Assembly: GCA_963754655.1 (NCBI GenBank) | Contig: CAVWGN010000001.1 | Location: 960,001-1,024,000 of the forward strand | Source: an uncultured Chlamydiae bacterium | GTDB taxonomy: Bacteria; Chlamydiota; Chlamydiia; Chlamydiales; Parachlamydiaceae | Direction: 5' to 3' | DNA: 64,000 bases | Shown: positions 405 through 50,081 of the stretch, one piece after another | Numbering within the stretch: position 1 is the first letter of the stretch | How the letters are laid out: the number at the start of each line of letters is the position of its first letter | Translations under genes and position numbers: made by a program | The notes under the pieces: model-generated | Database searches by the model: none | Seen by the model: the letters and a program-made list of their open reading frames with translations, nothing else | Told to the model about the DNA's origin: nothing

Positions 405-826
405 CCCACATTCCTAGACCAGGAAGATAAGTTTTTTGAATTAGATAAGAGCTCTGTCGTTAGGCCTGAAGGGCCGTCATGTTACAGCCCAGGTCGAAGC
501 GAAGCGGAGGCCTGGGTAAAATAAAAAAGAATCGAGTCCTGAAAGGACGGCATACTCAAAGGAGTGATTTCGCTTCGCAAGGGAATGGAGGATTTTCTAT
601 CTCTACATTAGCTCTAGAAGGAGAAAAAAATATCTTGCTTCTCAAAAAGAACACCAAATATTTGTGGGATTAATTTATGCCGTCCTTTCAGGACTCGATT
701 CTTTTTTTATTTTACCCAGGCCTTCGCTTCGCTTCGACCTGGGCTGTAACATGACGGCCCTTCAGGCCTAACGACAGAGCTCTTAACTAATTCAAAAAAC
801 TTATTCTCCTGGTCTAGGAATGTGGG
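405..826. mobile_element. Palindromic non-autonomous element, family A copy 1 (422 bp; ~150-bp inverted arms, ~120-bp spacer)
   Basis: Ends CCCACATTCCTAGACCAGG...CCTGGTCTAGGAATGTGGG; arms 405-554 and 676-826 are near-perfect reverse complements; near-identical copy at 12914-13335. Confidence 0.9.
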
Positions 827-869
827 TAACTCCTTCTTAATCCGGATCAATAATAGATCATGTAAGATT

Positions 870-1635
870 TTAATTCTTTACGCATTCATACAAAATGACA
901 TCATCATTGCTTGCCTCTATTCGAGAGTGAGGCTCTGCTTGCCATTTACCTATGATTTTTAAGTTGTGTTGTTCTAGTAATTTTTCGATCTCTACCGGCT
1001 CATAGTGTCTTACATGATAATCTTCTACTTCTGTCCGTAAGATTAGATTCTCTTCCCATAATTCATAGCGGAAAAGACCCGTTTCTACATGCGTCATGGG
1101 ATCGAAACGTGAAAGTATGTTGATAACAATTTTTGATCCGTCAGACCTAGTAACCCATCTGCCTCTCCCTACACCTTGAGGCTCACGAATTGCTTTCAAC
1201 GTTTCGATTTCAACAACGAATTTCCCACCATGCTTTAATCGATCTGCAATGAATGTAAGAGCTAAGTTAACCTGTTCTGACGTTATTAAATGGCCAAATG
1301 ATCCGCTTGGTATAAAGATTAAGTTATAAAGCTCTGTTAAGGAAAATGTTTCAAAAGTTGCTTCTCGTAGGTTAGTAATTAAACCTCGTTCCTCGCACTT
1401 CCTGCGGCACATATCAAGCATATAAGGCGAATAGTCAAAACCTGTAACAGTATATCCATGTTCAAGAAGCGGAATAAGAAAACGGCCTGTTCCGCACATA
1501 GGTTCAAGTATGGGGCCATCGGCCTCTTTTGCATAATGCAAATAGCAGTCAAGTGCATCTTTTGGGGCCGGTTGGCTTATCCAACTCATAGTATTCGGTA
1601 CACAGTGCTCTGTAGGGAACCGATTCTTTACTCAT
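870..1635 (-). pseudogene. Class I SAM-dependent methyltransferase with a 1-nt frameshift near 1570
   Basis: Motif ILEPMCGTGRFL; natural N-terminus MSKESVPYRALCTEYYELDKP starts at 1635 in a different frame from ORF 870..1589. Confidence 0.75.
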
Positions 1636-1693
1636 AAACATCTTTTCTCACTAGAATTTATCTTTTTTACTCTAAGCTCGTGCAAAACGTCTT

Positions 1694-2329
1694 CTAAAAT
1701 GTTCCTAGCTTTTCGAGAATGAAATCAATTCTTTCTTTAACAGCTATTTTCGGGATAAGAACTGTCTCATAACCGAAATTCTTGTACTTGATAAGAAGTT
1801 CATCAAACTCTTTTTTTGCAGATTCAAAATCATGCTTCCGCTCTTTATCGCCTTTAAAAATCTCTTCCCAAGGAGGAACTAGGAATACTAGACGATTGTA
1901 TCTAAAGTTTTTAGCTGCCTGCTGAAAATATTCCGGCTGAGATGGATCTAATTGAACAGCATCAATAATGCCTCGATCAAAAAAAATAAACTTTTGTGAT
2001 TCTTTCTGAGAATTAAACTGAAATAAGTAGCGAGATAAAGCTAGTTCCAAAAACTTATTAAGATTTATCCAGGGTAAACCATTTCCGCCGATTGCAGTTT
2101 GTTCTTTTACGATTTGCCGTCCTGGCTCAAGAACGACAGGATAGCCTCGATTTACAAGCTCTGAAAGAAGGGTGGATTTCCCTCCACCAGAGCATCCAGA
2201 AATAACTACATAATTATTTTTGACAATTGGAAAACTAGTCTCGTTTAGATAATTATCCTCTAAATTTTCCGCAGAAATATATGGATTCATAATCAAGCAT
2301 CCTAATAAAATTAATATAACTATTTTCAT
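1694..2329 (-). CDS. AAA_28-type P-loop ATPase/kinase with hydrophobic N-terminal extension
   Basis: VVISGCSGGGKSTLL Walker A, FFDRGIID, VFLVPPWEEIF..D.ER motifs. Confidence 0.8.
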   Translation of the reverse strand: MKIVILILLGCLIMNPYISAENLEDNYLNETSFPIVKNNYVVISGCSGGGKSTLLSELVNRGYPVVLEPGRQIVKEQTAIGGNGLPWINLNKFLELALSRYLFQFNSQKESQKFIFFDRGIIDAVQLDPSQPEYFQQAAKNFRYNRLVFLVPPWEEIFKGDKERKHDFESAKKEFDELLIKYKNFGYETVLIPKIAVKERIDFILEKLGTF

Positions 2330-2392
2330 TTAAACCTCTTTAAGCTGCAAAACCCTTGTAAAAAACCTCCTTAAATCACTCACAACTGTTCC
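2330..2392 (-). pseudogene. Severed C-terminal tail of the gene interrupted by the IS607 element
   Basis: Frame reads GTVVSDLRRFFTRVLQLKEV*, with the TAA directly abutting the ATG at 2329; plausibly continues the fragment at 4598-4820. Confidence 0.5.
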
Positions 2393-2600
2393 TAAAAACG
2401 TGTTAAAACGTGTTTATTTTGTTTCGCTCTCTGATTGACCGCCCGGTCCCCGAAATCATTTCTCCCGGCTGTGATAGTTTTTCTATCTCGAAAGACATTT
2501 GTGGACAAATGTCTTTTACGGTTTCTAGAGTCCTGCCCGGAACAGTCACAGGTTGCCCTGTTTCCAATCGGCGATGGAACCTATCAAGAAGAATGGTTTT
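2375..2600 (-). ncRNA. Predicted TnpB omegaRNA (scaffold overlapping tnpB 3' end; guide from right flank)
   Basis: GC-richer, hairpin-dense tail after the RuvC-III motif (CAGG-GCAA-CCTG, AAAGACATTT-GTCCAC-AAATGTCTTT, GATAG-AAAAA-CTATC, GACC-GGGC-GGTC); position matches known TnpB omegaRNA architecture; ends approximate. Confidence 0.6.
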
Positions 2601-3950
2601 CACTTGGCGGTATGGCACATGCAGCCCGATCTCTTGATCGCCAAATCTTCTTGCATAATTCATTGCGGCAACCCGATCACTTAAGTCCTCATGCCCACAA
2701 TTGAGACATTTAAACTTATCTTTATTGCGATTTTTAGAATCCACAAAATCGCAACAAACACAAGTTTGAGATCCATAAGCTGGGTTGACCTGCTCATGAC
2801 GGAAACCTTCCGCCAATGCCTTAAATGCAACTCTTTCTTGAAGCTTTCCCCGCAGCCATGAAGAAAGCCTTCTATTGACAATTTTTGGTTGATAATAAGA
2901 GAAGAGGTGAGATAAATCTTCAGTAATCAAAATGCAAGGTTTTTTATTTCTTAATAACTTATTAATCCCTGTATTGATTTCTCTCTCTAAAGAACTTCTT
3001 CCCTTTTTTTTCACCTTATTCAATTTTTTATTGCCAAGGTTATATTTTTTGATGTTTGTTTTTCTCAAACATTTCTGAAATTGTTTTTTCTCATAAGCAT
3101 GCAGTTTGTGTCTTTTCTGCATTTTTTGGTGCCGATGATTCAAGATCCGGCTCAAGATTTTCCCAAATTGAATTCCATAACGCTTGCCTTCCGTATCAGT
3201 CATGACTTCGCTATACCCAAAATCTACCGCTTCAATGGTCTCTTGAGAAGAAGCCTGTAAAGGTGCGATTTCTTCTGTCACATGGATGAAAAGATCTGTT
3301 TCATCTATCACTAAAGTGATATTGCCCTCTATGCGTCCCTTGCCTTTTACAGGAATGACAATGCGTTTGCCTTTCTCTAAAGACATGATTTTAATATATT
3401 GACATCCATTCTCTTCGAAAACGGTATAACAACTAGAATCGAATTTAATGCTACGAGCCTTTTTAACAACAACTTTTTTTGGTCTTTGCTTTTTCACTTG
3501 CCTTTGAATATAACTGGCTATCTTCTTGCAACTTTTTTCATCGATTTCAAAGCTTGGCTTCGGAACTTTTCCCTGCATCATTGCTGAAAATTGAGAATAA
3601 CCTTTAATCAGCCAATAAGCATAATGACGCTCTTGTTCTCTTTTAAAATGAGAGGCAATCTTTGAGCGAATAATGACAAACTGAGACTTCCAATTCTTGT
3701 CCCAAGTTTCCACCGCATCTTGCAAAGCAAGCTTCCAATGACGCGCTTGCAGGCAATAACTTGAATGATATTTTCGATTGATAAATTCATCTCGAATCTT
3801 ACGGGGCACTCCAAGAAGGGATTGGTATTTCCATGCCTTTAAAACATCTAGCCAGTGATTTTTTTCTTTTGCATAGGCTTTGCAAAGTAATTGAATTGCA
3901 ATCAATTTGTTTTTGTTTAACGGTAAAGCTTTGCGTTTAATTGTTCTCAC
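2403..3950 (-). CDS. tnpB: RNA-guided nuclease TnpB (IS607-associated), 515 aa
   Basis: RuvC-I AVDFG, RuvC-II ITEDL, VNPAYGSQTC-x2-C...C-x2-C zinc ribbon, RuvC-III SDRVAAMN. Confidence 0.9.
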   Translation of the reverse strand: MRTIKRKALPLNKNKLIAIQLLCKAYAKEKNHWLDVLKAWKYQSLLGVPRKIRDEFINRKYHSSYCLQARHWKLALQDAVETWDKNWKSQFVIIRSKIASHFKREQERHYAYWLIKGYSQFSAMMQGKVPKPSFEIDEKSCKKIASYIQRQVKKQRPKKVVVKKARSIKFDSSCYTVFEENGCQYIKIMSLEKGKRIVIPVKGKGRIEGNITLVIDETDLFIHVTEEIAPLQASSQETIEAVDFGYSEVMTDTEGKRYGIQFGKILSRILNHRHQKMQKRHKLHAYEKKQFQKCLRKTNIKKYNLGNKKLNKVKKKGRSSLEREINTGINKLLRNKKPCILITEDLSHLFSYYQPKIVNRRLSSWLRGKLQERVAFKALAEGFRHEQVNPAYGSQTCVCCDFVDSKNRNKDKFKCLNCGHEDLSDRVAAMNYARRFGDQEIGLHVPYRQVKTILLDRFHRRLETGQPVTVPGRTLETVKDICPQMSFEIEKLSQPGEMISGTGRSIRERNKINTF

Positions 3951-4549: not shown

Positions 4550-4597
4550 ACTTTGGCTTATTCACGTATATTTTTCAATAACTATTATCTACTCTTT

Positions 4598-4820: not shown

Positions 4821-4873
4821 TAAATTAGCTGAAGAAATATATAAAGAGTGGAAACGTAAAGCAGGTAAAAATA

Positions 4874-5345
4874 ATGGCTAAGCAAAAAGAAAAATGCCCT
4901 GAATATGAAACCTCATCGGGTAATGTTTTTGCAGATCTTGGGTTAGAACAATCAGACGAGCTTCTCGCTAGTACTCAACCACAGTATTTAGATTGCTTGA
5001 AAGCTCCCGCGGTTGAATTGGCGTAAATGGGTCAATATTAGCACCAATTCAACCCGGGGCTTTGAAGCAATCTAAATAGTGTGGTTGAGTACTAGAGCAA
5101 AACTTCTGAATGATGTAAGCCCTTTAATCAAAAATAGTCGCCTTTCTCAGAAAGACGTTGCTGAAAGATTAGGAATAACGCAACCAAAGGTTTCTATGTT
5201 GGTTAGCGGTCAAGTGGCGGCGTTTAGCGCAGATACTTTGATTCATTATTTATCCATCCTTGGATGTGAAGCGCAAATCCGAGTTAAGAAACCAAGATTA
5301 AAAACAGGGATATTCCGTTATAGAGGCCATATTGCTGTTTGTTAA
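4874..5345 (+). pseudogene. XRE/HigA-like HTH antitoxin interrupted by a 122-bp MITE
   Basis: Removing 4971-5094 restores MAKQKEKCPEYETSSGNVFADLGLEQSDELLARAKLLNDV...SQKDVAERLGITQPKVS; an upstream overlapping remnant LKLAEEIYKEW resembles the end of a RelE/Gp49 toxin. Confidence 0.85.
4971..5092. mobile_element. Minimal MITE of shell family B (GTACTC...GAGTAC), TA duplication in a CTAG target
   Basis: Imperfect 122-bp palindrome; flanking TA/TA; excision restores the host reading frame. Confidence 0.9.
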
Positions 5346-11311: not shown

Positions 11312-12277
11312 TTATTCACGATATAGTTTGTAATATTTCTCATAGCCTATGCCTGGAGGTGGTTGTTGCTTTGCTCTCTTTGACAAAAAGAAATCAGCGA
11401 GCACTTTATTTTCTTGCATGACCGCAATTTGAAAAGGCGTCAAACCGCTTTTATCTTTGGTGTCAACATCTGCCCCAAAATTTACTAAAAGTTTAACGAT
11501 CTCTTCTAAACCAGCTTTAACAGATAGTTGTAGAGCTCTATGCCCATTTGAAGTTTGATCATTCGGGCTACATCCACTTCTTAATAAAGCTTTCACTATA
11601 GCGAGTCCTTTTTCTCCACTTATGTGTGTTCGGTAGAAGCTATTTCTAATCAGCTCACTAAGATTCGGATTGCTCGCTCCTAGCTTTTTCATAAAATCAA
11701 CCAAAGGCACATAATCACCTCTGTCAGCACTGTTAAGCGTTTTAATATAGTCTTTGCGTACAATACCTTCTTGATTCAAATGACTCGGCCATACGGGATG
11801 TTGACATCTGAAAGCCAAAAGAAAACGGTCGGCGATTAAGCGCGAAAAGCGACCATTACCATTCTCAAAAGGATGAATAAAAACTAAGCGGTGATGTATT
11901 CTTGCAGCCATTTCTACAAAAGTAAGCTCAACAGGGTATTCCGACCAAGAGGAAACTTCTAGGCAAAGCTCTGCAAGCTGTATAGGTATTAAGCTGGCAT
12001 TGATACCTATAGATGTTATAGATTTTCTGTATACTCCTGCCCATTCCCACACATCTCCAAACATAGCTTGATGGATAGCTTTAAGTTCTTTCACTTGAAA
12101 CCAGGTTTGGGGATCGCCAATTCTTCCTTGGAGGTATTTTCTTTGTGCATTGAGTATATTTTCTGCTTCCACGCGATTGAGATCATGTAGATGATGAACC
12201 CAAACAGGGATGAGCCCGCTGCAATCACCTATGGGAGTAGCGCCTTCTGGAAATTCAAAACGCTCAGGCATTTTCAT
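11312..12277 (-). CDS. Mobile mystery protein B (Fic domain) with C-terminal ankyrin repeats
   Basis: PEGATP..D..GL N-terminus, MFGDVWEWAG.YR, HPFENGNGRFSR Fic motif; C-terminal GHRALQLSVKAG...GADVDTKDKSGLTPFQIAV ankyrin repeats. Confidence 0.88.
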   Translation of the reverse strand: MKMPERFEFPEGATPIGDCSGLIPVWVHHLHDLNRVEAENILNAQRKYLQGRIGDPQTWFQVKELKAIHQAMFGDVWEWAGVYRKSITSIGINASLIPIQLAELCLEVSSWSEYPVELTFVEMAARIHHRLVFIHPFENGNGRFSRLIADRFLLAFRCQHPVWPSHLNQEGIVRKDYIKTLNSADRGDYVPLVDFMKKLGASNPNLSELIRNSFYRTHISGEKGLAIVKALLRSGCSPNDQTSNGHRALQLSVKAGLEEIVKLLVNFGADVDTKDKSGLTPFQIAVMQENKVLADFFLSKRAKQQPPPGIGYEKYYKLYRE

Positions 12278-12731
12278 CCCATAATTTAGAATTTGGTCCT
12301 TGCAGGAGTCGTTCTTCTTCTTGCTTTATTAATTCTGAAATAAATCTAGGATCAGGCTGTTGGTCTTCTAAGTTCATCGTTCCTTCGAGATAACGAACTT
12401 GTTTTTCAGCCATTATTCTGGCTTGCTTACGCCGAATAGCATCTATTGAATCTTGTAGAAGTGGAACAATGACAAGGTCGCATGAAATTGCGCTTAAAAT
12501 TTTATTCAAGGTTGAAAGATTAGCATCTCTTTCTTCTTGCTCAATACGTGAGATTGTAGATTGGGGAACTCCGGCTCGTTTTGCCAAGGCTTTTTGCGAC
12601 ATCCCTAATTGTACACGAATAGATTTAATGAGAGCTCCAATCGTAAGACCTCTAACTGCTACTCTTGTTTTTTGAGCGGCTTGCATGATCTCTTCAATAA
12701 GAAGCTTTTCCGAGGGCGAAAATGATTTCAT
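12264..12731 (-). CDS. Mobile mystery protein A (XRE HTH)
   Basis: IRVQLGMSQKALAKRAGVPQSTISRIE; TMNLEDQ and LWD C-terminal signature; overlaps protein B. Confidence 0.85.
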   Translation of the reverse strand: MKSFSPSEKLLIEEIMQAAQKTRVAVRGLTIGALIKSIRVQLGMSQKALAKRAGVPQSTISRIEQEERDANLSTLNKILSAISCDLVIVPLLQDSIDAIRRKQARIMAEKQVRYLEGTMNLEDQQPDPRFISELIKQEEERLLQGPNSKLWDENA

Positions 12732-12913: not shown

Positions 12914-13335
12914 CCCACATTCCTAGACCAGGAAGATAAGTTTTTTGAATTAGATAAGAGCTCTGTCGTTAGGCCTGAAGGGCCGTCATGTTACAGCCCA
13001 GGTCGCAGCGAAGCGGAGGCCTGGGTAAAATAAAAAAGAATCGAGTCCTGAAAGGACGGCATACTCAAAGGAGTGATTTCGCTTCGCAAGAGAATGGAGG
13101 ATTTTCTATCTCTACATTAGCTCTAGAAGGAGAAAAAAATATCTTGCTTCTCAAAAAGAACACCAAATATTTGTGGGATTAATTTATGCCGTCCTTTCAG
13201 GACTCGATTCTTTTTTTATTTTACCCAGGCCTTCGCTTCGCTTCGACCTGGGCTGTAACATGACGGCCCTTCAGGCCTAACGACAGAGCTCGTAACTAAT
13301 TCAAAAAACTTATTCTCCTGGTCTAGGAATGTGGG
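12914..13335. mobile_element. Palindromic element family A copy 2 with 6-bp direct repeat TAAAAT
   Basis: Same 422 bp as 405-826 (3 substitutions seen); TAAAAT immediately on both sides. Confidence 0.9.
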
Positions 13336-13460: not shown

Positions 13461-14501
13461 CTACAAAATTTGAGATGATTTTTCTACAGTTGACTCCCAA
13501 AAAAGGTCAGGGCGTGATAGAGTCTTTGCAGCTTCATTATGAATAGTTTTAATTCTTTCGTATTGATCTGGCGCAATTATTTGTAGAGTCCCTAAAGTTT
13601 CTTGATTTTTTTCATTTCTCAACCACTTAGCAGCAATTATTGCATCTTGTTTAACACCATCACGATAGTAAAACTCAATTTCATCTGCATGTTTAAGAAA
13701 AGTATCGTTTATGCGTTGTGGAAGTAATAAACCTTTTTCTATTACGTCCTGTTCTGTGGTTTGAACAAAGGTTTTATCCCTTTCTTGAATAGAACCCCAT
13801 CTAACGTCATCGGGAGCTGAAACGTATATAAGTCTAATGAGGTATCCTTGCGCTTTTAAGAACTCGAAAAAATTACCAGTAGCTGGACCTGAAGATGTTG
13901 TTCCAAAATAAAAGGCACATTTTTCTCGAATAAGGTTTCCTAGAATTAAATGAGTTGCAGCGTTTGAACCTGGTCTCCATTTATTATAAGCATTCTGACG
14001 GACAAGTTTTGAGCTATCACTGCTCTCTATCTCAGCTTTATATGTCCTGGTCTGGTTTTTTAAACAAACATCATCTGGGCAAATGTAAGCGTAATGCTTT
14101 CCTTGAAGGGCATTAATTTCAAGATCTTGTCTTAATTTAGTAGTTTTCCCTGCACCAGGCGCTCCAGCTGTCATAATAGCTATATTTTCTTTAGCAGGGT
14201 TTGCTGAAATGATCTGTTGATATAATTCATTAATATCTTCACGCAGTTTTTCCGACTCTTCAAATGTATAGTTCTCAGAATTGTCAAAGGCTTTTCCTGA
14301 AAGGAAACCTTCCAGCACATTTTGAGGCAAAGAGTACTGATAGTGTGAATTGTATATGAGATCTAAATTACATACGTTATGTGTGACAAGGCTTGACATG
14401 GCCACCTCCTGCAATTGCTCTTTGGCCTTTAAAGTGCTATCAAGCATAAAGAAAGAGGCTATAGAAGCAATGATAAAATTTGATAAGTTTTGCTTGTTCA
14501 T
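13461..14501 (-). CDS. Zeta-toxin-like P-loop kinase domain protein
   Basis: IMTAGAPGAGKTT, YICPDD, FGTTSS, IYVSAPDDVRW.SIQERD pattern; start codon uncertain. Confidence 0.65.
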   Translation of the reverse strand: MNKQNLSNFIIASIASFFMLDSTLKAKEQLQEVAMSSLVTHNVCNLDLIYNSHYQYSLPQNVLEGFLSGKAFDNSENYTFEESEKLREDINELYQQIISANPAKENIAIMTAGAPGAGKTTKLRQDLEINALQGKHYAYICPDDVCLKNQTRTYKAEIESSDSSKLVRQNAYNKWRPGSNAATHLILGNLIREKCAFYFGTTSSGPATGNFFEFLKAQGYLIRLIYVSAPDDVRWGSIQERDKTFVQTTEQDVIEKGLLLPQRINDTFLKHADEIEFYYRDGVKQDAIIAAKWLRNEKNQETLGTLQIIAPDQYERIKTIHNEAAKTLSRPDLFWESTVEKSSQIL

Positions 14502-14609
14502 AATAAGGACTATAAAGCAAAAAAAATGTACGCTCAAGGGAAAAAGCAGTGCGGTGCACTAACGGTGCAATAACTCCACTTAAGACGACCGGCATCTTTT
14601 TTGAGAGGT

Positions 14610-21753: not shown

Positions 21754-22828
21754 GTCTTCAATCATATGAGTTTTTGCCTATTGGGTTTGCTTGAAAGTTG
21801 GGATGAGATGATTCTCATGTAGTCCTTCAGACTACATGACGAGGGCTAATCTAACCCAGGGTGATGCCCTGGGCTATTTTTATTTGAAGCCTTTCATGCT
21901 CTGAACATTGGACATCTTTTTGTTAACCGTCTCTAATATGTAACATTTAATAGGCATGGCCCTACAATTGTTATAGAAGGATGTCTTCCAAAAATATCCG
22001 ATGTTCAGAGCCTGAAAGGCTTCAAATAAAAATAGCCCAGGGCATCGCCCTGGGTTAGATTAGCCCTCGTCATGTAGTCTGAAGGACTACAAGAGAATCA
22101 TCTCATCCCAACCCAGGGCCGGGACTTAACAAAGAACTGTTTTGGGCTTGATATTCGTCCCGTCAATTTAACAACACCGCGCCTGTAATAGGCTTTAGGG
22201 GCATATTTCTCGAAAATGACGCGAAAAACATCAAGCCCAAAACAGTTCTTTGTTAAGTCCCGGCCATAGGCTAGGAACGAAATGCTTCCGGCAAACTCCA
22301 GAAGCTAAATTTGTCGCTCAAGCGGCGTTAGCCGCGCATGGATAGTAGCCGTGGGTGTAGGCGAAGCCGGAACCCACGGTGTATGGTAAAAAAAATGAAG
22401 CCACGTTAGTGGCGTAGGAAATGTGATTGTGGAGCAATGTTTATTTAAACGAATGCTACGCCACTAACGTGGCTCAAATTTGTTTTGAGGGTAACCGTGG
22501 GTTTCGGCTTCGCCTACACCCACGGCTACTATTCATGCGCGGCTAACGCCGCTTGTCGCTGAGGGAAAGGATATGGATCAAGCAACATTTCAAAAACAAA
22601 GATAAAAATTCCGATTACCTAGCCATATGCCGGGACTTAACAAAGAACTGTTTTGGGCTTGATGTTTTTCGCGTCATTTTCTGGAAATATGCCTCTAAAG
22701 TCTATTATAGGCGTGGTGTTGTTAAATTGATGCGACGAATATCAAGTCCAAAAATAGCTCTTTGTTAAGTCCCGACCCAGGGCCTGTGAAGCAGTCCCAA
22801 TAGGCAAAAACTAATGTGGTTGAGTAAC
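21754..22828. mobile_element. Nested composite element: shell B > REP-pair D > inserted E-F-E' composite
   Basis: Degenerate TA-GTcTTCAA...TTGAGTAAC-TA ends; D arms ~21797-21920 and ~21995-22112; insert 22118-22776 flanked by CCAGG/CCAGG. Confidence 0.85.
22118..22776. mobile_element. Composite E-F-E': two inverted ~147-bp MITEs flanking a REP-pair element
   Basis: E 22118-22264 and E' 22629-22776 (TIR GCCGGGACTTAACAAAGAACTGTTTTGGGCTTGAT); F 22270-22623 with GCTAGG...CCTAGC ends flanked by CATAG/CATAT. Confidence 0.85.
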
Positions 22829-28592: not shown

Positions 28593-28791
28593 GAAATTTA
28601 CAGGGAATTAGAAAGAAGCATTTAAGAGCTTTTCCCCAATAGCATGAGCCAATTGACTGCTCGCATTGATACTAGTGGATCGCTTTTCACGCTTCGGCGC
28701 ATCCTGAAAGACTAAAAAAATCTCTAAACTGATCCTTAAAGCCATTTATATAGAGTCTTATTTCGTTATGCCTACGCCAGATGACCCACTA

Positions 28792-29631
28792 GGGAGCGTA
28801 CCTAAAAGATTAACCATTGTATAATACAAGCGATCGTCAACATTCCTGCATAATTTTGAGCTTTCATTTCGTATCTTATTCCAATACGCCTAAATCGTTT
28901 TATAAACTGAAAAAAATTTTCTACCAAGCAACGCTCTCTGTAGATATGTTTATCATGTTCAATTAGTTCAGCTCTTGATACTTTGCTGGGTATGACTGCT
29001 TGACTTCCCATCTTTTCTATAAAATTTCTGATTTCATTTGAGTCGTAAGCTTTATCAGCTATAACATTTTTTGGATTTTTTCCACTGAGTAAAAGCTTCA
29101 TTTGAGTGCTCTCGTGTACTTGACCTTCTGTCAAGATAAAATCAATACAACGACCTAATCCATCTGTTACTGCATGAATTTTTGTGGTTGTTCCGGCCCT
29201 TGATTTTCCCATGGCTTCTTCGGCTTTTTTTTTATCCTACAAGCATCTTGATGCGCTTCAACAATTGAGCTGTCTACAGAGTAATTTTCTTCGTCAATTT
29301 CATCTTTTAAAGCTTGCCAAATCGTTTGCCAGATTCCAGCCTTTGTCCATCGATTAAAGCGATTATAACATGTGCTCCAAGGACCATACTTGGGTGGTAG
29401 ATCCCTCCAAGCGGCTCCTGTTCTTAAAATCCAAATAATGCCTTCTAAAATCTTACGATGAGGCCGACTTGGTCTGCCCCAATATCCTCGTTCTTTTGGC
29501 AATAAAGGTTTTATTTTTATCCATCTTTCATTAGTTAATACTATCCTACTCATTCAAATTTCCCCCTTGTTTTATCAGAGAAAATTATAAATCATAAGAG
29601 TTATTATTTTAAATCTTTTAGGTACGTTCCC
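28792..29631 (-). mobile_element. IS5-family (IS427-group-like) insertion sequence, 840 bp
   Basis: 20-bp TIRs GGGAGCGTACCTAAAAGATT / GGGAACGTACCTAAAAGATT, TA duplication in CTAG, two overlapping ORFs. Confidence 0.92.
28802..29553 (-). CDS. IS5 transposase, OrfA (29167-29553) + OrfB (28802-29212) joined by a -1 frameshift at A9 (29225-29233)
   Basis: ILRTGAAWRDLP..YGPWSTCYNRFNRW, VDSS, GKSRAG.TTKIH, ADKAYDS, YRERCLVENFF..KRFRR. Confidence 0.88.
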
Positions 29632-29633
29632 TA

Positions 29634-30376
29634 GTACTCCATTACATTAGTTTTGCGTATTTGGACTGCTTCAAAGCCCGGGGTTAGGGTGTTCATTTGT
29701 GCAAAAATGAGCTTTATTTTTCACAATAATTGGCATAGTTGAATTGAAGGTCGCATGTTTATGCCGTCCTTTCAGGACTCGATGTCTTTTTGATAGAACC
29801 CAGGCCTCCGCTTCGCTGCGACCTGGGCTGTAACATGACGGCCCTTCAGGCCTTAACAAAATTTGAATTGAAGGTCGCATGTTTATGCCGTCCTTTCAGG
29901 ACTCGATGTCTTTTTGATAGAACCCAGGCCTCCGCTTCGCTGCGACCTGGGCTGTAACATGACGGCCCTTCAGGCCTTAACAAAATTTGAATTGAAGGTC
30001 GCATGTTTATGCCGTCCTTTCAGGACTCGATGTCTTTTTGATAGAACCCAGGCCTCCGCTTCGCTGCGACCTGGGCTGTAACATGACGGCCCTTCAGGCC
30101 TTAACAAAAAGATGATTTAGGGACTATAGAAGAGGGACTTAAACATCTCTTGTTAAGGCCTGAAGGGCCGTCATGTTACAGCCCAGGTCGCAGCGAAGCG
30201 GAGGCCTGGGTTCTATCAAAAAGACATCGAGTCCTGAAAGGACGGCATAAACATGCGACCTTCAATTCAACTATGCCAATTATTGTGAAAAATAAAGCTC
30301 ATTTTTGCACAAAATGAACACCCTAACCCCGGGCTTTGAAGCAGTCCAAATACGTAAAACTAATGTAATGGAGTAC
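29634..30376. mobile_element. Shell B carrying element C with three tandem plus one inverted REP-like unit
   Basis: GTACTCCATTACATTAG...CTAATGTAATGGAGTAC ends with TA/TA; inner GTTAGGGTGTTCATT...AATGAACACCCTAAC. Confidence 0.9.
29739..30109. repeat. Three perfect tandem copies of a 124-bp REP-like unit
   Basis: Units start at 29739, 29863, 29987; inverted fourth copy ~30151-30270. Confidence 0.92.
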
Positions 30377-33553: not shown

Positions 33554-33832
33554 TAAAAGAAATTAGAAAAAGATATTCAAAAGCTAAAATCTGGCTAAGC
33601 GACGCCTTCAGTCGCCGCGCCGCTTAACCTAAAATCCTCTCTTGTAATGGAGTACTCAAAAAAGGATGGGTAGGGAAATCAGAAAAAGGGCAATGTCCTC
33701 CCTAAAGTAATGGCTAATCAATGAATCAAGAATGATTGAAACAAATTTTATAAAATATAGAAAATGAAGATAGGATAAATAAACTCCTATTCGACAGAAC
33801 ATGAATTTACAAGAGAAAATCTAGCAATTGAT

Positions 33833-34849: not shown

Positions 34850-35042
34850 AAGCAAGCATGACCCATTTTTTTGGCTTATAGCGAAAAAAAATCAACAAAT
34901 AATCAATTCCTGAAATGAAAAATAAAGGTAGAAACTTTACGAATAGATCTAAGCCTCCTCTTGCAAAATTACCAGTGAAACTCCAAAGGTTAGGGGCCAA
35001 ATTTGCTGCAAGCAAATTGTCAGATGAGCTGCGCTGCTGATG

Positions 35043-36581
35043 TTATTGAGTATAGGTGCTTTGCTTATGCTTTTTTCGTAATATTTTTTGAGCGGTACGT
35101 TCCATTTGAAGACTTAAATTTACAAATTGAAGAACATGGTCATTTTGCTGAACAGCAGCCAAGACAATTTCTCGATCTTTTTTAAGAATTGCATCTGCAA
35201 ATATAAGCGCTGTGCCTCTTTGCTTAACGGCAGCCAGGACAATCTCTCGATCTTTTTTAAAGCTTTCATCTGCAAATATAAGAGCCGTACCTCTTTGCTG
35301 AACAGCAGCTAAAACAATCTCTCGATCTTTTTTAAGATTTTTATCTGTAAATATAAGAGCCGTTCCTCTTTGCTGAACGGCAGTCAGGACAATTTCTCGA
35401 TCTTTTTTAAGGCTTTCATCTGCATATTGAAGAGCTCCGCCATCTTGCTTAATGGCAGTCAAGACAATTTCCCGATATTTTTTAAGACTTCCATCTGCAA
35501 ATTGAAGAGCCCGGCCCTGTTGCTGAACTGCAGTCAAGACAATCTCTCGATCTTTTTTAAGGCTTTCATCTGCAAATTCAAGAACCAACCCATATTGCTT
35601 AACAGCAGTCAAGACAATCTCTCGATTTTTTTTAAGGCTTTCATCCGCACATTCAAGAACTAACGCATGTTGCTTAACAGCAGCCAGGACAATCTCTCGA
35701 TCTTTTTTAAGGCTTTCATCTGCAAAGTAAAGAGCCTTGCCATTTTGCTTAACTGCAGCTAAGACTATCTCTCGATCTTTTTTAAGGCTTTTATCTGCAA
35801 ACTGAAGAGACCTACCATCTTGCTGAACGGCAATCGAAATAATCTCTCGATCTTTCTTAAGACTGTCATGTATATAAAAAACAAAATCTCCAAAACAGCG
35901 AGCAACTTGAATAAAAATTTTATTATCATTAAAATCGGAAAAATTTTTTTTAAGTGTGGAAATGACAGATATTCTTGCCTGTTCCCATGCTTGACATCGA
36001 TTGCCATGGTAAAGTTTTTCGATAGAGTCATTTTTGATAATGGTTAATATTTGGTCGTCAGTGCCTGATGTAAGAGAATTTAAAATAAATAATTGCTCTT
36101 TAGCCACATCTTGGATGTTTTTATTGGCGCTGTCTTTGCAAACTTCGGGATCCCATAAAAAGTGATCTAGAAGAGAAAGAAATAAACTTTTTGAGTGGAA
36201 TAATTTTGAATCAACCATTAACAATTTTTCAAATTTTTTTCCACGGCGGCCTTGAAATCGATCGATCAATTGAAATTCCTGAGGTGTAAAACGCTTCTTT
36301 TGCTCAATTGTGAGACACTCTTGGGGGAACTTAATAGTGGATGGATGACTATTCTCAAGTTGAAAAAAAGTCTGCACTAATGAAATGCAAGGATTCTTCT
36401 CTAGAACGAGTTTCCATTTTTTACAGGTGAGTAGAAGAGAAGAAATGTCACGCAAAGGTTGACTTTGATTGACAATCTGATCAAAAACAATTCCTAAGAT
36501 CTCATTGGGAATTAATGCGTCTAAGAAAACTTCATCTGAATCGCTTTGCTTTTTTTGTGAATTAAGAAGGGTAATTTGCAT
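35043..36581 (-). CDS. F-box-like + DUF4116 repeat protein (putative effector)
   Basis: N-terminal LIPNEILGIVF...LLLTCKKWKLV; about ten 25-aa repeats ADESLKKDREIVLAAVKQ.G.AL.F. Confidence 0.85.
   Translation of the reverse strand: MQITLLNSQKKQSDSDEVFLDALIPNEILGIVFDQIVNQSQPLRDISSLLLTCKKWKLVLEKNPCISLVQTFFQLENSHPSTIKFPQECLTIEQKKRFTPQEFQLIDRFQGRRGKKFEKLLMVDSKLFHSKSLFLSLLDHFLWDPEVCKDSANKNIQDVAKEQLFILNSLTSGTDDQILTIIKNDSIEKLYHGNRCQAWEQARISVISTLKKNFSDFNDNKIFIQVARCFGDFVFYIHDSLKKDREIISIAVQQDGRSLQFADKSLKKDREIVLAAVKQNGKALYFADESLKKDREIVLAAVKQHALVLECADESLKKNREIVLTAVKQYGLVLEFADESLKKDREIVLTAVQQQGRALQFADGSLKKYREIVLTAIKQDGGALQYADESLKKDREIVLTAVQQRGTALIFTDKNLKKDREIVLAAVQQRGTALIFADESFKKDREIVLAAVKQRGTALIFADAILKKDREIVLAAVQQNDHVLQFVNLSLQMERTAQKILRKKHKQSTYTQ
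35130..35870 (-). repeat. 75-bp coding tandem repeats (DUF4116)
   Basis: Recurrent GACAATCTCTCGATCTTTTTTAAGGCTTTCATCTGC with 75-nt period. Confidence 0.88.
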
Positions 36582-37787: not shown

Positions 37788-38172
37788 CTTCCCTAATCTA
37801 TATTTCTTCTAGTTGAATCCTGGAAAATTGTAGCTAGCGTAAAAAATTTCTCTAGTCATTCTTTTCACTTAACGCTAGGGATTTTAAAACCATCCTAATA
37901 AGCAAAAACTAATGTCACGGAGTACTACCGATGGCATTAATCATGAGACGTCATTCTCATCTACTATTCAGTTTCCAGCAAGCATATTATTACATTCATT
38001 ACATAATCGAGTCATTTAAGATAAACATGCCCAAAATGAAATGACTTTAAAACTACTGAAGTTTATGAAGGAAAATAGAGGAATCATTCAAAAATTTAGA
38101 TCGAGTGCAAGAGCTTGGTCATAAGATGATAGAAAAGTCAAACAATCCTTCTATGTTAAAGGACATAAATTT

Positions 38173-44142: not shown

Positions 44143-44297
44143 AATTCTCCTCTATTTTCTTTATATCCATTTAAAGTTCGATTTAGATCTTTAACGAATA
44201 AGTGTCAAGATCTATTGTGGTATCACAATAATTTTGCCTATTGCTGTTGCTCAGACAAACTTCTAAGGCCAGCAAATGTTTTAATCAAAACACTCTA

Positions 44298-45379
44298 ATA
44301 CTCCATTACCTTAGTTTTAGCCTATTGGGACTGCTTCAAAGCCCGAGGTTGGGATGAGAGGATTCTCTTGTAGTCCTTAAGACTACATGACGAGGGCTAG
44401 TCTAACTCATGGCGATTCCCTAGGCTATTTTTATTTGAAGCCTTTCAGGCTTTGAACATTGGACATTTTTAGAAGACCTCCTTCTATAACGATGCCTATT
44501 AAATAGTACATATTCCACAATCATTCTAGAGACGGTTAACAAAAAGATGTCCAATGTTTATAGCCTGAAAGGCTTCAAATAAAAATAGCCCAGGTCCGGG
44601 ACTTAACAAAGAACTGTTTTTGGGCTTGATATTCGTCGAGTCGATTTAACAACACACCGCCTTTAAAAGCCTTTAGAGGCATATTTCCCGAAAATGACGC
44701 GAAAAACATCAAGCCCAAAACAGTTCTTTGTTAAGTCCCGGCCATATGCTAGGAACGAGATGCTTCTGGCAAACTCCAAAAGCTAAATTTGTCGCTCAAG
44801 CGGCGTTAGCCGCGCATGGATAGTAGCCGTGGGTGTAGGCGAAGCCGGAACCCACGGTGTATGGTAAAAAAAATGAAGCCACGTTAGTGGCGTAGGAAAT
44901 GTGATGGTGGAGCAATGTTTATTTAAACGAATGCTACGCCACTAACGTGGCTCAAATTTGTTTTGTGGGTAACCGTGGGTTTCGGCTTGCGCCTACACCC
45001 ACGGCTACTATCCATGCGCGGCTAACGCCGCTCGTCGCTGAGGGAAAGGATATGGATCAAGCAAAATTGAAAAACAAAGATAAAAAATTCCGACTACCTA
45101 GCCATATGCCGGGACTTAACAAAGAACTGTTTTGGGCTTGATATTTTTCGCGTCATTTTCGAGAAATATGCCTCTAAAGCCTATTACAGGCATGGCGTTG
45201 TTAAATTGATACGAAGAATATCAAGCCCAAAAACAGTTCTTTGTTAAGTCCCGGCCCAGGGCATCGCCATGGGTTAGATTAGCCCTCGTCATGTAGTCTG
45301 AAGGACTACAAGAGAATCATTTCCTCCCAACCCGGGCTTTGAAGCAGTCCCAATAGGCAAAACTAATGTAAACGAGTAC
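44298..45379. mobile_element. Nested composite element: shell B > REP-pair D with E-F-E' inserted inside the right D arm
   Basis: TA-aTACTCC...GAGTAC-TA ends; insert 44595-45255 flanked by CCAGG/CCAGG; F 44748-45102 flanked by CATAT/CATAT. Confidence 0.9.
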
Positions 45380-45598
45380 TAGCTGATTTATGAATAAAAT
45401 CGAAATCGATAAATTTTTTATTATCAAATTCAAGAAATTGTCATTTTTTAAATCTTAAGAACAGCTATTATTTTTATTCAAGAAAAGATCGAATTTAAAT
45501 AATTAATGGCAGTTGCTGTAAATTATAAATTAGATTTGATTGAAATGCTAAAAAGGTATAATTAAATATAATTTTAAATATGTGTTTTGGAGTGTATT

Positions 45599-46399: not shown

Positions 46400-46743
46400 G
46401 CGAAGTTTGTTTTTTTTGCTTGTGAATAACACTTAATTGATATGGCTCCTCGGAAAATGTCCCTTTGATAGTTTCTGCGAATGTGCGGGCATCGAATTCT
46501 TTACTGGCTTCTAGGATTTTGGCATCAATTGGTTTACGTCGTGACATAGCTCCTCCAAATTTGAGGTATTCACTATGCCATATTAACCGATCCTCTATCA
46601 AAAAAAATTAGTTAACTCACATGATTTAGTTAAATGACCCTGAAGAAAAGATATAGTTAATAATTTTTTTTAAGGCTTGTTAAAAAATTTGAATTATTCT
46701 AAAATTAACATTTAAATAAATTACAACAATAAAGGAATAAATA

Positions 46744-48948
46744 ATGATTTCATCATTAGGGAAAAGACCTTTTGCTTCTTTAGAAGCTGAGCCGCAAAGA
46801 CAATATACTTATTCTCCATTCGATAATTTAGATGTTGTCTTCCACATTTTTTCACAGAAGTGTAGTGATTCAAAGGAACTTTCTGATCAAGACTTACTCG
46901 CTTTTGAGGGTGCATGTCATATGCATCGAACGCTAACAACATCAGTTTGGTATCGTTTAAGACAAAAAAACTTTTTTAGCATCGATTGGATGGTTTGCGG
47001 AGAAGATCATAGAAAAAATTATTTTTTATCTAAAGCCATTGTCACCTATATTCAACATTTACCAATAAAAGGTCGTAATACATGCAAATCAGTTATCAAA
47101 AAATTCTCTACTATTTGTAATCAATTTCCAGTATTTCAATCTTTTATTGACCTAACTTTATTATCGACCGAAAACCTTAATATTCCTAAAGAATTAGCTA
47201 AACAATTAAAACAAGAAAAAATTTTAGATACAATCCAAGAAGTGTATCATTTTGCATTACTTGCCACTTTTCGGAAAGGAGAAAAGGACCAACCGCAGAA
47301 AGTGTTAAATTCACAATACGAGTTAATGAAGAATAAAGTTGATAGCTTAATTGACCTTAACACTACTTTTATTAATAGATGTGTTATTAAGATTTTTGAA
47401 CGTTATTTTTTAGTAAATAAACACCGAGACTTTCTTGTTCAATTAGTAATTAAAGCAGATGAAAAAGGGGATTATTCAGGATTTCAAGAGTTAAGGAGAC
47501 TAGGAATTGATTTATACCCAAGTGATTTTCAGGAGATAGAACAGGAGTTAAACGCCGATTCTAATCCTCTTATTTTAGCCCAAGAATTTATAAACTTACA
47601 ATATCAAGCAAAATTAAAGGTAGAAAAAAACAAAAAATGCCCTTATTTATATTTGATTAATATTTGTGAGCAGGATAAGACACAGGAAGATGAGTGTATT
47701 GAAAGTCAAAAACTTTTTTTAAAATTAAAAGAACATTATGATAAAGAGATAATGCCTCCAGATCTTTTAATTGCAGTGCTTCAATTTCAACTTAAAGTAC
47801 AAAATTGGGAAGAAGCAGACAAATATTTATCTCAAATTCTTAATGAACAAAATAACTCTAATCCACATTTAATCTGGTTAGCGGCTAAACTTAAAGTCAA
47901 ACTTAATCAAAATGAAAAAGCCAATGATTATTATAATCAATTGAGCGGAAAAAAGCAGTCAAAATTTTATAATAAAATATTTTTTGAAAGCCTTAAAGTT
48001 AAAATTTTGCTAGAAAAATTTCAAGAAGCGGATAAAGAGCTTAAGAATTTCTTTAGTACAATCCGAGATTCCATTAAGGTTACTACTCGTTCTTGTGTTT
48101 TTAATGGTGGTTATTGTTTTATTACCGATTACAGTTCTTCAATAGATCCAATTCAAGATTGTATTAATTTAAAATATCATGTCAAAGACGAGAAAGGAGC
48201 AAAGTGGTTTGAAACCCTTGCTTTGCTTGCAAATCTTAATCAGTACAATAACCAGCAGGCCTGCCAAGAAGCAAACCAGCATTTTACAGAAGACTTCTAT
48301 CGAGCAGAATATCAAATTCCCCGTGAGCTTTTAGAAAAATTAGCTCAGATTAAAATGGAATTACAAGAATACAATGCTGCAGAATTTCTTTATGATCTTT
48401 ATTTTTCTCCTAAAAAGACTAAAAAAAATGATCCGGATATCGGATTTTTTAGAAATCATGGTGAGTATATAAATTATGCAGCGTTGAAATATCAAGCGGA
48501 AAAATGGACAGAGGCTGAAAAGCTTTACACTCAAATCTTCTATGATCGCCACAATTACTTTTGTAATTCTAACTCCGAGGCGTTAGAAAAATTTGCTCAT
48601 ACTAAGCTTAACCTTGAGAAATGGGAAGAAGCCGAACACCTTTACAGCATCCTTTTGCAGGATATGAGGCATGCTAATCCTTTAGCTGTCTATCTTAATT
48701 ATGCTCATGTTTGTCTTCAATTAAACAAATATGAACGGGCTTTAGAAATGTATCAATGTGCTCAATCTTTTTTTCCTCAACACGTTGATGCAAGAGTGGA
48801 CGCAGATATTGCTTATACTTTAATGAGTTTAGAAAGATTTGGAGAGGCGAATGATTTTTATAATAAAGCGATTCTACTCTATGGAGATCAACCACCAGAG
48901 CATGTTTTAGAAGAAGCAGCCATTGTGAGATCAAAGCTAGGTCTGTGA
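46744..48948 (+). CDS. F-box-like N-terminus + TPR repeat protein, copy 1
   Basis: LDVVFHIFS...DLLAFEGACH..RTLT..VW; C-terminal TPRs (VYLNYAHVCLQLNKYERALEMYQCA). Confidence 0.8.
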   Translation: MISSLGKRPFASLEAEPQRQYTYSPFDNLDVVFHIFSQKCSDSKELSDQDLLAFEGACHMHRTLTTSVWYRLRQKNFFSIDWMVCGEDHRKNYFLSKAIVTYIQHLPIKGRNTCKSVIKKFSTICNQFPVFQSFIDLTLLSTENLNIPKELAKQLKQEKILDTIQEVYHFALLATFRKGEKDQPQKVLNSQYELMKNKVDSLIDLNTTFINRCVIKIFERYFLVNKHRDFLVQLVIKADEKGDYSGFQELRRLGIDLYPSDFQEIEQELNADSNPLILAQEFINLQYQAKLKVEKNKKCPYLYLINICEQDKTQEDECIESQKLFLKLKEHYDKEIMPPDLLIAVLQFQLKVQNWEEADKYLSQILNEQNNSNPHLIWLAAKLKVKLNQNEKANDYYNQLSGKKQSKFYNKIFFESLKVKILLEKFQEADKELKNFFSTIRDSIKVTTRSCVFNGGYCFITDYSSSIDPIQDCINLKYHVKDEKGAKWFETLALLANLNQYNNQQACQEANQHFTEDFYRAEYQIPRELLEKLAQIKMELQEYNAAEFLYDLYFSPKKTKKNDPDIGFFRNHGEYINYAALKYQAEKWTEAEKLYTQIFYDRHNYFCNSNSEALEKFAHTKLNLEKWEEAEHLYSILLQDMRHANPLAVYLNYAHVCLQLNKYERALEMYQCAQSFFPQHVDARVDADIAYTLMSLERFGEANDFYNKAILLYGDQPPEHVLEEAAIVRSKLGL

Positions 48949-48961
48949 AATTAAATTGAAA

Positions 48962-49007
48962 TAGAGAGGCGGCAGTTTCGTTTTATCACAGAGATTGCCG
49001 CCTCTCT
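48962..49007 (+). terminator. Stem-loop after TPR gene copy 1
   Basis: AGAGAGGCGGCAGT...ATTGCCGCCTCTCT; long loop and weak U tract. Confidence 0.5.
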
Positions 49008-49209
49008 TGTCTCTAAGACACTTAGCTTAGGCTGGAATGTCATGCAGTCTGAAAGGCTACAGGTGTCAAATTTTTTTTATTAAAAACACTCTGGATTTTG
49101 AGCCATCAGTTAAAAGAACCTCTTTTAAAAAGCCCACTTAATTTAAATTAGAAGGAAAAGCGTTCTAATAATTAGTTGTTAAATATTTTTTTGTTTTCTC
49201 ATCCCTGTC

Positions 49210-50081
49210 TTGGCTTGAATTGGCGTAAAGCGGATCCATATTACCACAATCATTTTAGAGACGGTTAACAAAAAAATGTCCAGTGTTCAGAGCCTGAAAG
49301 GCTTCAAATAAAAATAGCCCTGGGCCGGGACTTAACAAAGAACTGTTTTGGGCTTGATGTTTTTCGCGTCATTTCCGAGAAATATGCCCCTAAAGCCTGT
49401 TACAGGCCTGGTGTTGTTAAATTGACGCGATGAATATCAAGCCCAAAACAGTTCTTTGTTAAGTCCCGGCCCTGGGCTAGGGTGTTCATTTTGTGCAAAA
49501 AATGATCTTTATTTTCACAATAATTGGCATAGTTGAATTGAAGGTCGCATGTTTATGCCGTCCTTTCAGGACTCGATGTCTTTTTGATAGAACCCAGGCC
49601 TCCGCTTCGCTGCGACCTGGGCTGTAACATGACGGCCCTTCAGGCCTTAACAAGAGAGGTTTAAGTCCCTCTTCTATAGTACTTAAATCATCTTTTTGTT
49701 AAAGCCTGAAGAGCCGGCCCTTCAGGCCTTAACAAGAGATGTTTAAGTTCCTCTTCTATAGTCCCTAAATCATCTTTTTGTTAAGGCCTGAAGGGCCGTC
49801 ATGTTACAGCCCAGGTCGCAGCGAAGCGGAGGCCTGGGTTCTATCAAAAAGACATCGAGTCCTGAAAGGACGGCATAAACATGCGACCTCCAATTCAACT
49901 ATGCCAATTATTGTGAAAATAAAGCTCATTTTTTGCACAAAATGAACACCCTAACCCAGGCAGGGCATCGCCCTGGTTAGATTAGCCTCGCCATGTAGTC
50001 TGAAGGACTACAAGAGAATCATCTCATCCCAACCCAGGGCCTGTGAAGCAATCCCAATAGGCAAAACTAGTGGTTGAGTAC
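49210..50081. mobile_element. Left-truncated nested element: D right arm carrying solo E (49324-49470) and C (49476-49955), closed by shell B right end
   Basis: E flanked by CCTGG/CCTGG; C ends GCTAGGGTG...CACCCTAAC; terminal GGTTGAGTAC-TA; left boundary approximate. Confidence 0.85.

Follow-up and report, generated by a model that had tools for sequence, protein, structure and literature searches.

Palindromic loci in the genome of a chlamydia-like bacterium as probable pile-ups of nested mobile elements carrying transposase-linked hairpin modules

We analysed a window of 64,000 nucleotides (nt) from an uncultured Chlamydiae bacterium of the family Parachlamydiaceae (C1:960001-1024000, where C1 is contig CAVWGN010000001.1 of assembly GCA_963754655.1). 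The genome consists of 2 contigs of 3,123,268 and 35,310 bases with 38.8% G+C, and its 4 genes for TLC ATP/ADP translocases, compared with 0 in 14 control genomes, are consistent with an obligate intracellular bacterium. The subject of the analysis is a set of seven loci at which palindromic elements lie inside one another. An original prediction, made from the letters of the window, had described these loci as assembled from a short list of shared parts: outer shells A and B, which it took for miniature transposable elements with inverted repeats (MITEs), and inner elements C, D, E and F. This description was borne out, since inverted repeats were found at all seven loci and modules are shared between them. 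Overall, the window contains 32 inverted-repeat pairs, the longest of which coincide with the seven named loci. Below, U denotes a 124-nt hairpin unit, G a further element found within C, and Y1 the HUH-type transposases of the genome; insertion sequences are abbreviated as IS and open reading frames as ORF. The features are as follows, with the strand where one is assigned.

405..826: element A, copy 1; shell ends at 405-458 and 773-826 (CCCACATTCC...)
~460-554 and ~678-772: inverted-repeat pair of U arms in A copy 1
~566-673: centre of A copy 1, what is left of a Y1 transposase gene after internal deletion; last codons and stop retained
4969..5094: element B with its native short core; body 4971-5092, TA at 4969-4970 and 5093-5094
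12914..13335: element A, copy 2, 99% identical to copy 1, with TAAAAT on either side
21754..22826: locus 4; degenerate left B arm 21754-21796, D 21797-22110, right B arm ending at 22826
22120-22774: E-F-E of locus 4; E 22120-22262, F ~22263-22630, E ~22631-22774
28790..29631, minus strand: full IS5-family IS; ORF 28802-29212 matching DDE_Tnp_1 (70 bits); adjoins the left CTAG of B at 29632
29632..30376: locus 5; TA 29632-29633, B left arm 29634-29683, TA 29685-29686, C 29687-30323
right side of locus 5: TA 30324-30325, B right arm to 30374, TA 30375-30376
33593..33656, minus strand: solitary B arm fragment
37877..37928, minus strand: solitary diverged B arm
44296..45381: locus 6; B arms 44298-44347 and ~45330-45379, each flanked by TA
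44348-44596 and 45254-45329: the two parts of D in locus 6, interrupted by E-F-E (44597-45253) in the GCCCAGGGC hairpin of D
49095..50083: locus 7; right-end fragment of a hAT-like IS 49095-49205, B-core fragment 49215-49242, inner part of D 49244-49316
49326-49468: E of locus 7, with GCCCTGGGC duplications at 49317-49325 and 49469-49477
49480-49951: C of locus 7, with TA on both sides; 82-nt unit doubled at 49633-49796
49956-50031 and 50032-50081: right part of locus 7, D right arm and B right arm

Two corrections to the earlier list are contained in this map. The two solitary B arms had been missing from it, and at locus 7 it is the left B arm that is in fact missing, with a fragment of a full IS standing at the start of the locus. 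The inverted arms include 405-528/703-826 (97% identity), 12914-13037/13212-13335 (95%), 29696-29859/30150-30313 (164 nt, 100%) and 49471-49653/49778-49960 (183 nt, 98%), together with 4959-5007/5056-5104.

A repeat comparison of the window identified the modules that are common to several loci (repeat families numbered D2, D3, D6, D8 and D10-D17), and genome-wide these parts recur 20 to ~290 times. Counted as distinct full-length copies, the 124-nt U unit is present 227 times (median identity 99%), followed by 181 C ends, 147 B arms, 73 E, 26 F and 20 A ends. Matches to the sequence of the seven loci sum to 118,740 bases, or 3.8% of the genome, and 14-mers present at least 10 times begin at 8.1% of genome positions. 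A whole-genome search with a library of module pieces returned 244 repeat loci with many different module strings. The cargo of 43 paired B shells likewise differed from shell to shell: C in 11, the native core in 9, D plus C in 5, D plus E and F in 3, D in 3, D plus C and E in 1 and other contents in 2, the remaining 9 being assigned to a class of core plus C that is unreliable, as five B+C (or D+C) copies checked by eye were without a B core. The modules are therefore not tied to one fixed combination anywhere we looked in the genome, and the cargo is interchangeable, as had been predicted.

The history of shell B could be read from a gene that it splits. At 4971-5092, B interrupts an HTH_37 ORF (HigA-like, antitoxin-like), leaving the pieces 4874-4969 and 5095-5345. 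In a genome of the same genus (G003) both flanks are adjacent with a single CTAG, and this empty site, GCTAGAGC, belongs to an intact ORF reading ...ELLARAKLLNDV..., which shows that B inserted with duplication of TA. Orthologous empty sites for the other six loci were not found in the three same-genus genomes, where their flanks are not kept together. Globally, 144 of 169 B ends are flanked by TA, which has a frequency of 6.3% in the genome, and 117 of 169 by CTA, the flanks being otherwise unrelated. An empty B measures ~160 bp and consists of a 58-nt native hairpin core flanked by CCCCGGGG arms. Stowaway-like miniature transposons of the IS630/Tc1-mariner type are short and gene-less, have terminal inverted repeats and duplicate TA, and CTAG is the classic IS630 target. 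Judged by its sequence, B behaves as a miniature transposon of this type, with CTAG as the target and TA duplicated. B and C resemble such miniatures in being short and gene-less, with terminal inverted repeats and a duplicated TA, and B also in favouring CTAG. On the other hand, C is always centred in a GC-rich palindrome, neither B nor C has a convincing full-length partner here, and both hold exchangeable cargo. A resident IS630-family element (335-aa ORF, DDE_3), with ends TAGTACTTTATTT..., lies 4 kb upstream of the window. The IS5-family IS has 28 ends genome-wide that adjoin a B-type terminus or a close variant of it, including one at 28790-29631.

Element C sits inside other palindromes. 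We counted 93 + 93 ends genome-wide; 82 pairs could be made of them, most often 392 bp long. TA flanks 170 of the 186 ends, and CCN(1-2)GG occurs within the 12 flanking nt of 166 of them, as compared with 324 of 20,000 random 12-mers. The site is the centre of a short GC-rich palindrome, for example a hairpin of D or the middle of B, where the context is AAAGCCCCGGGGC-TA-[C]-TA-GCCCCGGGGCTTT. Longer C copies hold whole unrelated ISs, and no element with the C ends (GGGTGTTCATTTTG) in the genome encodes a transposase of its own. C, which had been listed as an inner element, contains within it the further element G (298 bp, with its own inverted ends GGCATGGTTCAATTGAAGG), which forms the core of C and is free at 26 loci. 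Of 105 G end pairs, 13 stand in unique contexts with direct repeats of 7-9 nt, exactly 8 nt in 11 of them, 63 belong to C shells, where the junction is a palindromic AATT, and 23 are without a repeat.

C also carries traces of later rearrangement within its arms. At locus 5 the 124-nt U arm is present in three tandem copies, on the left side only (29696-30107). Such tandem expansions (the U arm threefold, the 82-nt hairpin-spacer-hairpin unit twofold at locus 7) resemble bacterial interspersed mosaic elements (BIMEs), and elsewhere in the genome the spacer unit of C arrays reaches 7 copies. A comparison of 43 canonical C copies, on average 95% identical in pairs, revealed 35 asymmetric variant types and 26 that are mirror-symmetric on both arms; of the latter, 16 were confined to one copy. 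By a rough estimate, far fewer than one such independent double hit would be expected, which points to the palindrome arms copying each other. Arm-to-arm copying would also convert direct duplications into inverted flanks.

The next layer is formed by E, of ~144 bp, and by the composite E-F-E, of ~656 bp, with 71 E units in 41 chains. The outer 9-nt flanks of E-F-E are identical in 7 of 16 cases and differ at no more than one position in 13 of 16; among 21 solo E units, 6 have identical flanks and 9 have flanks within one mismatch. These flanks are mostly GCCCWGGGC-like, and the window cases at 22120-22774, 44597-45253 and 49326-49468 fit. At locus 4 the duplication is ACCCAGGGC (22111-22119 and 22775-22783, 0 mismatches), and at locus 6 the flanks are GCCCAGGTC and GCCCAGGGC, with 1 mismatch. 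The G-Y-Y-R-G-G-type ends once ascribed to the inner elements are mostly target sequence (GCCCWGGGC and CCCNGGG-YTA) and not element ends. F, which had been listed simply as one of the inner elements, is almost always bracketed by E: an E end adjoins 40 of 42 F ends, so that F travels with one E copy on either side. In the same-genus genome G002, the F core is found without E at several loci. An IS without a Pfam match, which we call hAT-like, has 11 resident copies with GCCCAGGGC on both flanks, and the GCCCWGGGC target and 9-nt repeat are common to E, E-F-E and this IS. A search for terminal similarity between E and the hAT-like IS gave nothing better than a 12-mer (E-value 0.012). For A we found 21 ends, with direct repeats of 5-6 nt at 5 of 6 paired elements (ATTGAA, TAAAAT, TTACTG, ATAAA, TCTAT); around the copy at 405 such repeats were sought and none was found. 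Since the outer shells (B with TA, A with 5-6 bp) and several inner elements (C with TA, G with 8 bp, E and E-F-E with 9 bp) carry target-site duplications, and B has an empty site in G003, they behave as cut-and-paste miniature transposons of the DDE type, as had been proposed for the shells.

The inner hairpin units lead to HUH enzymes. The genome has 9 matches to PF01797. One of the encoded proteins, Y1f, is a classical IS200 transposase with 148 bits on the NCBIfam model NF033573 (cut-off 55). Five intact paralogues of 148-150 aa, Y1a-e, are 37-49% identical to each other and reach 63.5-73.3 bits on the same model; their HUH and Tyr motifs are conserved, and all five have the signature Y---Q--HH (Y115, Q119 and H123 invariant; consensus KYIxNQKEHH). 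On NF047646, the NCBIfam model for REP-associated tyrosine transposases (RAYTs; REP, repetitive extragenic palindromic), four of the five scored 22.6-25.3 bits and the fifth had no match. We ruled out an assignment of the Y1 proteins to the RAYTs on these scores, which lie far below the cut-off of 80, and on the passing of the IS200/IS605 model.

Inverted U modules bracket Y1a (C1:395750-396241), and on one side an A shell end is present as well. In a colinear blastn alignment to this Y1a element, positions 56-164 of A correspond to the upstream arm (79%), positions 162-252 to an internal part of the ORF (79%), and positions 252-421 to the final 18 nt of the ORF together with arm and shell (95%). 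This makes the centre of A a Y1 gene with two deletions in its interior, and because of this the statement that no cognate transposase is encoded inside any of the elements is only partly true. For Y1b, the final 10 nt of the ORF and 63 nt downstream of it are matched by the D arms at 81-84%, and the 90 nt upstream of the ORF at 71-74%. The F arms match the first 100 nt downstream of Y1c at 79-80%, the downstream flank being the only one of Y1c that was matched. Three module families (U, D-type and F-type) thus match the arms of three different Y1 paralogues, which upholds the predicted link of the inner units to HUH enzymes and points to the modules being REP-like recognition DNA of single-strand transposases. 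The Y1 arms are inverted copies of one module, and not distinct left and right subterminal hairpins as in IS200/IS605. Folded as single-stranded DNA, the D arm has a z-score of -4.4 and the F arm of -4.7, a level that 0 of 200 shuffles reached. GTAG occurs in the first hairpin of the D-type module, ATGTAGTC...GACTACAT, whereas the U hairpins (GTCC, CCCAGG and GGCC stems) are without GT[AG]G. In all, 180 of 293 U units are located in C.

D shares its tip with the hAT-like IS. The tip of this IS (C1:1781575-1783421) reads GGGATGAGA-AA-ACGAGGGCTAA, and that of D reads GGGATGAGA-[30-nt GTAGTC hairpin region]-ACGAGGGCTAA, so that the end of the IS looks like a D arm minus the hairpin. The Y1b ORF has this common tip as its tail. 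The right-end fragment of the hAT-like IS at the left edge of locus 7 has 89% identity.

C, E and four full ISs favour hairpins or palindrome centres. A 375-aa IS (DDE_Tnp_1, DUF772; 11 copies) sits in the loop CCTGAAAGG of the first U hairpin, the CATGTT linker holds IS481-like elements, CCTGGG an IS5-like element and the spacer an IS256-like element. With C at CCN(1-2)GG (166/186), E in GCCCWGGGC and the full ISs in U loops and linker, the idea that each layer supplies targets to the next was supported.

One part of the modules is already represented in Rfam. The second and third U hairpins and the linker align to the whole RF01687 (Acido-Lenti-1) model at 36.3-36.4 bits, against a cut-off of 37. 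In A copy 1 the matches are 36.4 and 36.3 bits (462-516, minus strand; 715-769, plus strand), and locus 5 has four of 36.4 bits; at gathering thresholds, Rfam gave 0 matches in the entire window. The D-type module reached only 19.9 bits on RF01687 and the F-type module had no match. The F core (22328-22545) matched RF02625 (Wolbachia small RNA WsnRNA46) at 47.5 bits (E-value 1e-8), below the cut-off of 65.3, and this Wolbachia 'sRNA' may be a related palindromic repeat. In Table 1 of Weinberg 2010 (PMC2864571) the Acido-Lenti-1 motif is rated 'probably RNA' and listed only as a probable small RNA, and a 2026 preprint speaks of a motif of unknown function. The elements described here are like the published motif in that the second and third U hairpins with their conserved linker cover its whole model, and unlike it in that the motif here belongs to mobile palindromes at the DNA level and occurs on both strands, with window scores just under 37.

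We also asked where gene and modules occur outside this genome. In a scan of one genome per species, the Y1 proteins had 592 relatives, spread over many phyla. In the 40 of 80 retained loci around such relatives that the survey covers, RF01687 was present at an E-value of at most 0.01 in 18 and at or above the gathering score of 37 in 13, typically 40-100 nt upstream (minus strand) and 20-120 nt downstream (plus strand) of the ORF. These matches indicate that the layout of a gene plus arms is present in other phyla too. A link between RF01687 and Y1 transposase genes was not found in the searchable literature. Among 40 relatives of the bacterium, the U module is present in 11, which include 9 of 24 from the same family and, at most weakly, 1 of 3 same-genus genomes; a search of the same 40 for the C shell ends gave matches only in this genome. 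Hardly any U or C sequence is present in the same-genus genomes G001-G003, but both families are common in several other genera of the family. This patchy distribution of U and C suggests recent invasion or loss. In a relative from another genus (locus L092, G020:C28, 1176-1725), a U pair lies in a different inverted-repeat shell, the arms of which contain AAGTACTTTAAT, similar to this genome's IS630-family element at its end.

Taken together, we consider it probable, at roughly three chances in four, that the loci are pile-ups of non-autonomous mobile elements of several mechanistic classes, nested in one another. The nesting itself, the duplications, the empty site of B, the homology of the modules to Y1 flanks and the preference of C, E and four full ISs for hairpins or palindrome centres are observed. 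In such a scheme, B (~160 bp, IS630/Tc1-mariner type) would insert at CTAG and duplicate TA. C (392 bp, ~90 copies) would come to lie between duplicated TA in palindrome centres, and its core, G, would make 8-bp duplications when free. E and E-F-E would enter GCCCWGGGC with a 9-nt duplication, and A would move with its own ends and duplications of 5-6 bp. The cargo of A, C/G, D and F would be inverted pairs of ~100-nt three-hairpin modules. These hairpin-rich modules may serve as landing pads, in which case elements would accumulate inside each other. Since the U pairs ride in duplication-making carriers (G with 8 bp, C with TA), their recent amplification looks DDE-like and not HUH-like. The duplication-making shells would have powered the recent burst of 95-99%-identical copies and taken the HUH modules along as passengers, and arm-to-arm copying would keep the two arms of a palindrome alike. 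The original prediction of HUH-type REP pairs riding in DDE-type MITEs stands as far as the nesting is concerned; the proteins are not RAYTs, and the recent spread looks shell-driven. The search for matching transposases that it had proposed yielded Y1 genes with module arms, whose products are not RAYTs, and an IS630-family element that shares a short tip with B, but no transposase gene framed by ends like those of C, G, A and E.

Several findings weigh against this reading. For C, G, A and E, searches of this genome yielded no autonomous element with matching ends, so the transposase assignments of these four rest on duplication length and target only. B and the resident IS630-family element have only the 7-nt tip TAGTACT in common. 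In some B shells the left and right arms come from different B subfamilies, which implies that recombination too shuffles modules. Unoccupied CCNGG-YTAR-CCNGG sites were found only twice genome-wide, in a repeated (probably ribosomal RNA) locus; with none elsewhere, there is no paralogous empty site for the insertion of C into a pre-existing palindrome. The 63 G-in-C junctions are palindromic and not duplicated, unlike simple cut-and-paste. D in B has TT before 77 of 89 ends and a palindromic junction with no direct repeat. The U unit folds only modestly (z -1.9; 10 of 200 shuffles as good). Finally, the short-read contigs of three public runs stop at repeat borders, and none bridges a nest.

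An alternative, which we regard as unlikely, is that the Y1 enzymes actively move D, the U doublets and the native B core as single-stranded elements in the manner of REPINs (inverted REP doublets), with the shells as mere landing pads, which is the strong form of the original prediction. The five intact Y1 paralogues would provide the enzymes. D, and likewise the native B core, lies between ...TT and AA... without duplication, as expected for HUH insertion; the tandem arrays of alternating hairpin and spacer are like those of BIMEs, and the mirror-symmetric singleton variants would fit passage via a single-stranded hairpin. However, dispersal without duplication holds for D only and not for the U doublets: most U units are in TA-flanked C, and free G has its 8-bp duplications. 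The upstream Y1a arm has moreover decayed to 79%, the proteins fail the RAYT model, and U is without a GT[AG]G foot.

It is far less likely still that the mosaics arose mainly by homologous recombination or gene conversion between dispersed palindromes, and not by nested transposition. The B shells with arms of mixed subfamilies, the arm-to-arm copying, the palindromic junctions without duplications and the lack of unoccupied target palindromes would all be accommodated. What decides against it is that layer-specific duplications exactly flank the nested units (9 nt around E-F-E, TA around C), and recombination would not create these. We give even less credence to the view that the modules are small structured RNA genes of the Acido-Lenti-1 or WsnRNA46-like kind, with a repetition that reflects function. 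The scores on RF01687 and RF02625 and the 'probably RNA' rating by Weinberg 2010 (PMC2864571, Table 1) speak for it; nevertheless, the copies are inverted pairs on both strands that bracket transposase genes in many phyla, the modules ride in duplication-bearing elements, and all matches in the window stay below gathering scores. The least credible reading, that the nests are assembly chimeras of repeats, could appeal to the short-read contigs that break at repeat borders, but the genome is in 2 contigs, matching duplications surround each layer, and the arrangements recur with variations at dozens of loci.

Beyond the nested pile-ups, we can imagine a two-way dependence, an idea that we advance tentatively and with considerable doubt. 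The Y1 hairpin modules would, through their structure, specifically attract at least five unrelated duplication-making transposons, which would have become the main multipliers of the Y1 hairpins. The relationship might extend to a full IS, the hAT-like one with its D-arm-like end minus the hairpin, and the mirror mutations might record Y1-processed single-stranded hairpin intermediates.

Other features of the window adjoin the loci. Locus 7 lies between two copies of a ~3.57-kb direct duplication (46669-48975 and 50238-52580, 95-96% identity), which encode TPR-repeat proteins of 734 and 736 aa. A copy 2 lies between an HTH_3 ORF (12264-12731) and an ORF at 13461-14537 that weakly matches Zeta_toxin/AAA; these two, and the HigA-like gene that B interrupts, are cases of toxin-antitoxin-like genes adjoining elements. 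At 35023-35922 there are tandem 75-nt repeats in an ORF on the minus strand (35043-36581), where they encode DUF4116 repeats (322 bits).

Descriptions of such nests were not found in the open-access literature, and the prediction had not recognised a described system. The parts are of known kinds, so the system is not wholly undescribed. MITEs nested in one another are said to have been described in plants by Jiang and Wessler in 2001, and in 2008 Elhai reportedly found small dispersed repeats nested in cyanobacterial MITEs. As in those plants and cyanobacteria, small non-autonomous elements here insert preferentially into each other; the difference is that this takes place in a 3.1-Mb bacterial genome, where HUH-linked hairpin modules are mixed with duplication-making shells.

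Another comparison is with the 'REPtrons' formed by REP/REPIN sequences and RAYTs, as presented by Nunvar 2010 (PMC2817692), Bertels & Rainey 2011 (PMC3116915) and Quentin 2018 (PMC6006769). Both systems have a Y1 HUH gene between inverted copies of a hairpin repeat, with the same repeat dispersed as inverted doublets, and several gene/repeat families per genome, each gene with its own repeat. Unlike in REPtrons, the Y1 proteins here fail the RAYT model, the unit is a ~100-nt three-hairpin module versus a REP of 20-40 nt, U has no GT[AG]G foot, and the doublets are inside carriers with terminal inverted repeats and target duplications. A closer protein match is TnpA-Y1 subclass 1.2, which Quentin 2018 (PMC6006769) characterises by the signature Y---Q--HH, as close to IS200 transposases but distinct, without terminal secondary structures and not IS-like in behaviour. 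The five paralogues here have that signature; in contrast to the subclass as characterised there, they occur together in a chlamydia-like genome, with hairpin arms and gene-less derivatives. ISs that target REP hairpins are treated by Tobes & Pareja 2006 (PMC1525189) and, for ISPpu9, in PMC12288879. Full ISs and miniature elements here similarly insert specifically in the hairpins of repeat modules, but at least five element families do so, and the targets are themselves in other mobile elements, at several levels of nesting.

The finding matters for the known families as well as for this genome. For an IS200-like transposase subclass described as being without terminal structures, it would provide a concrete DNA partner, and for an Rfam family still called 'of unknown function' it would offer a reading at the level of DNA. 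Within one small genome, the recognition hairpins of HUH enzymes would have been captured and multiplied by cut-and-paste miniature transposons, and GC-rich hairpins and palindrome centres would be common landing sites for several transposon families. With dozens of near-identical copies per nesting level, the genome may be a natural test bed for hairpin-targeted insertion and arm-to-arm copying.

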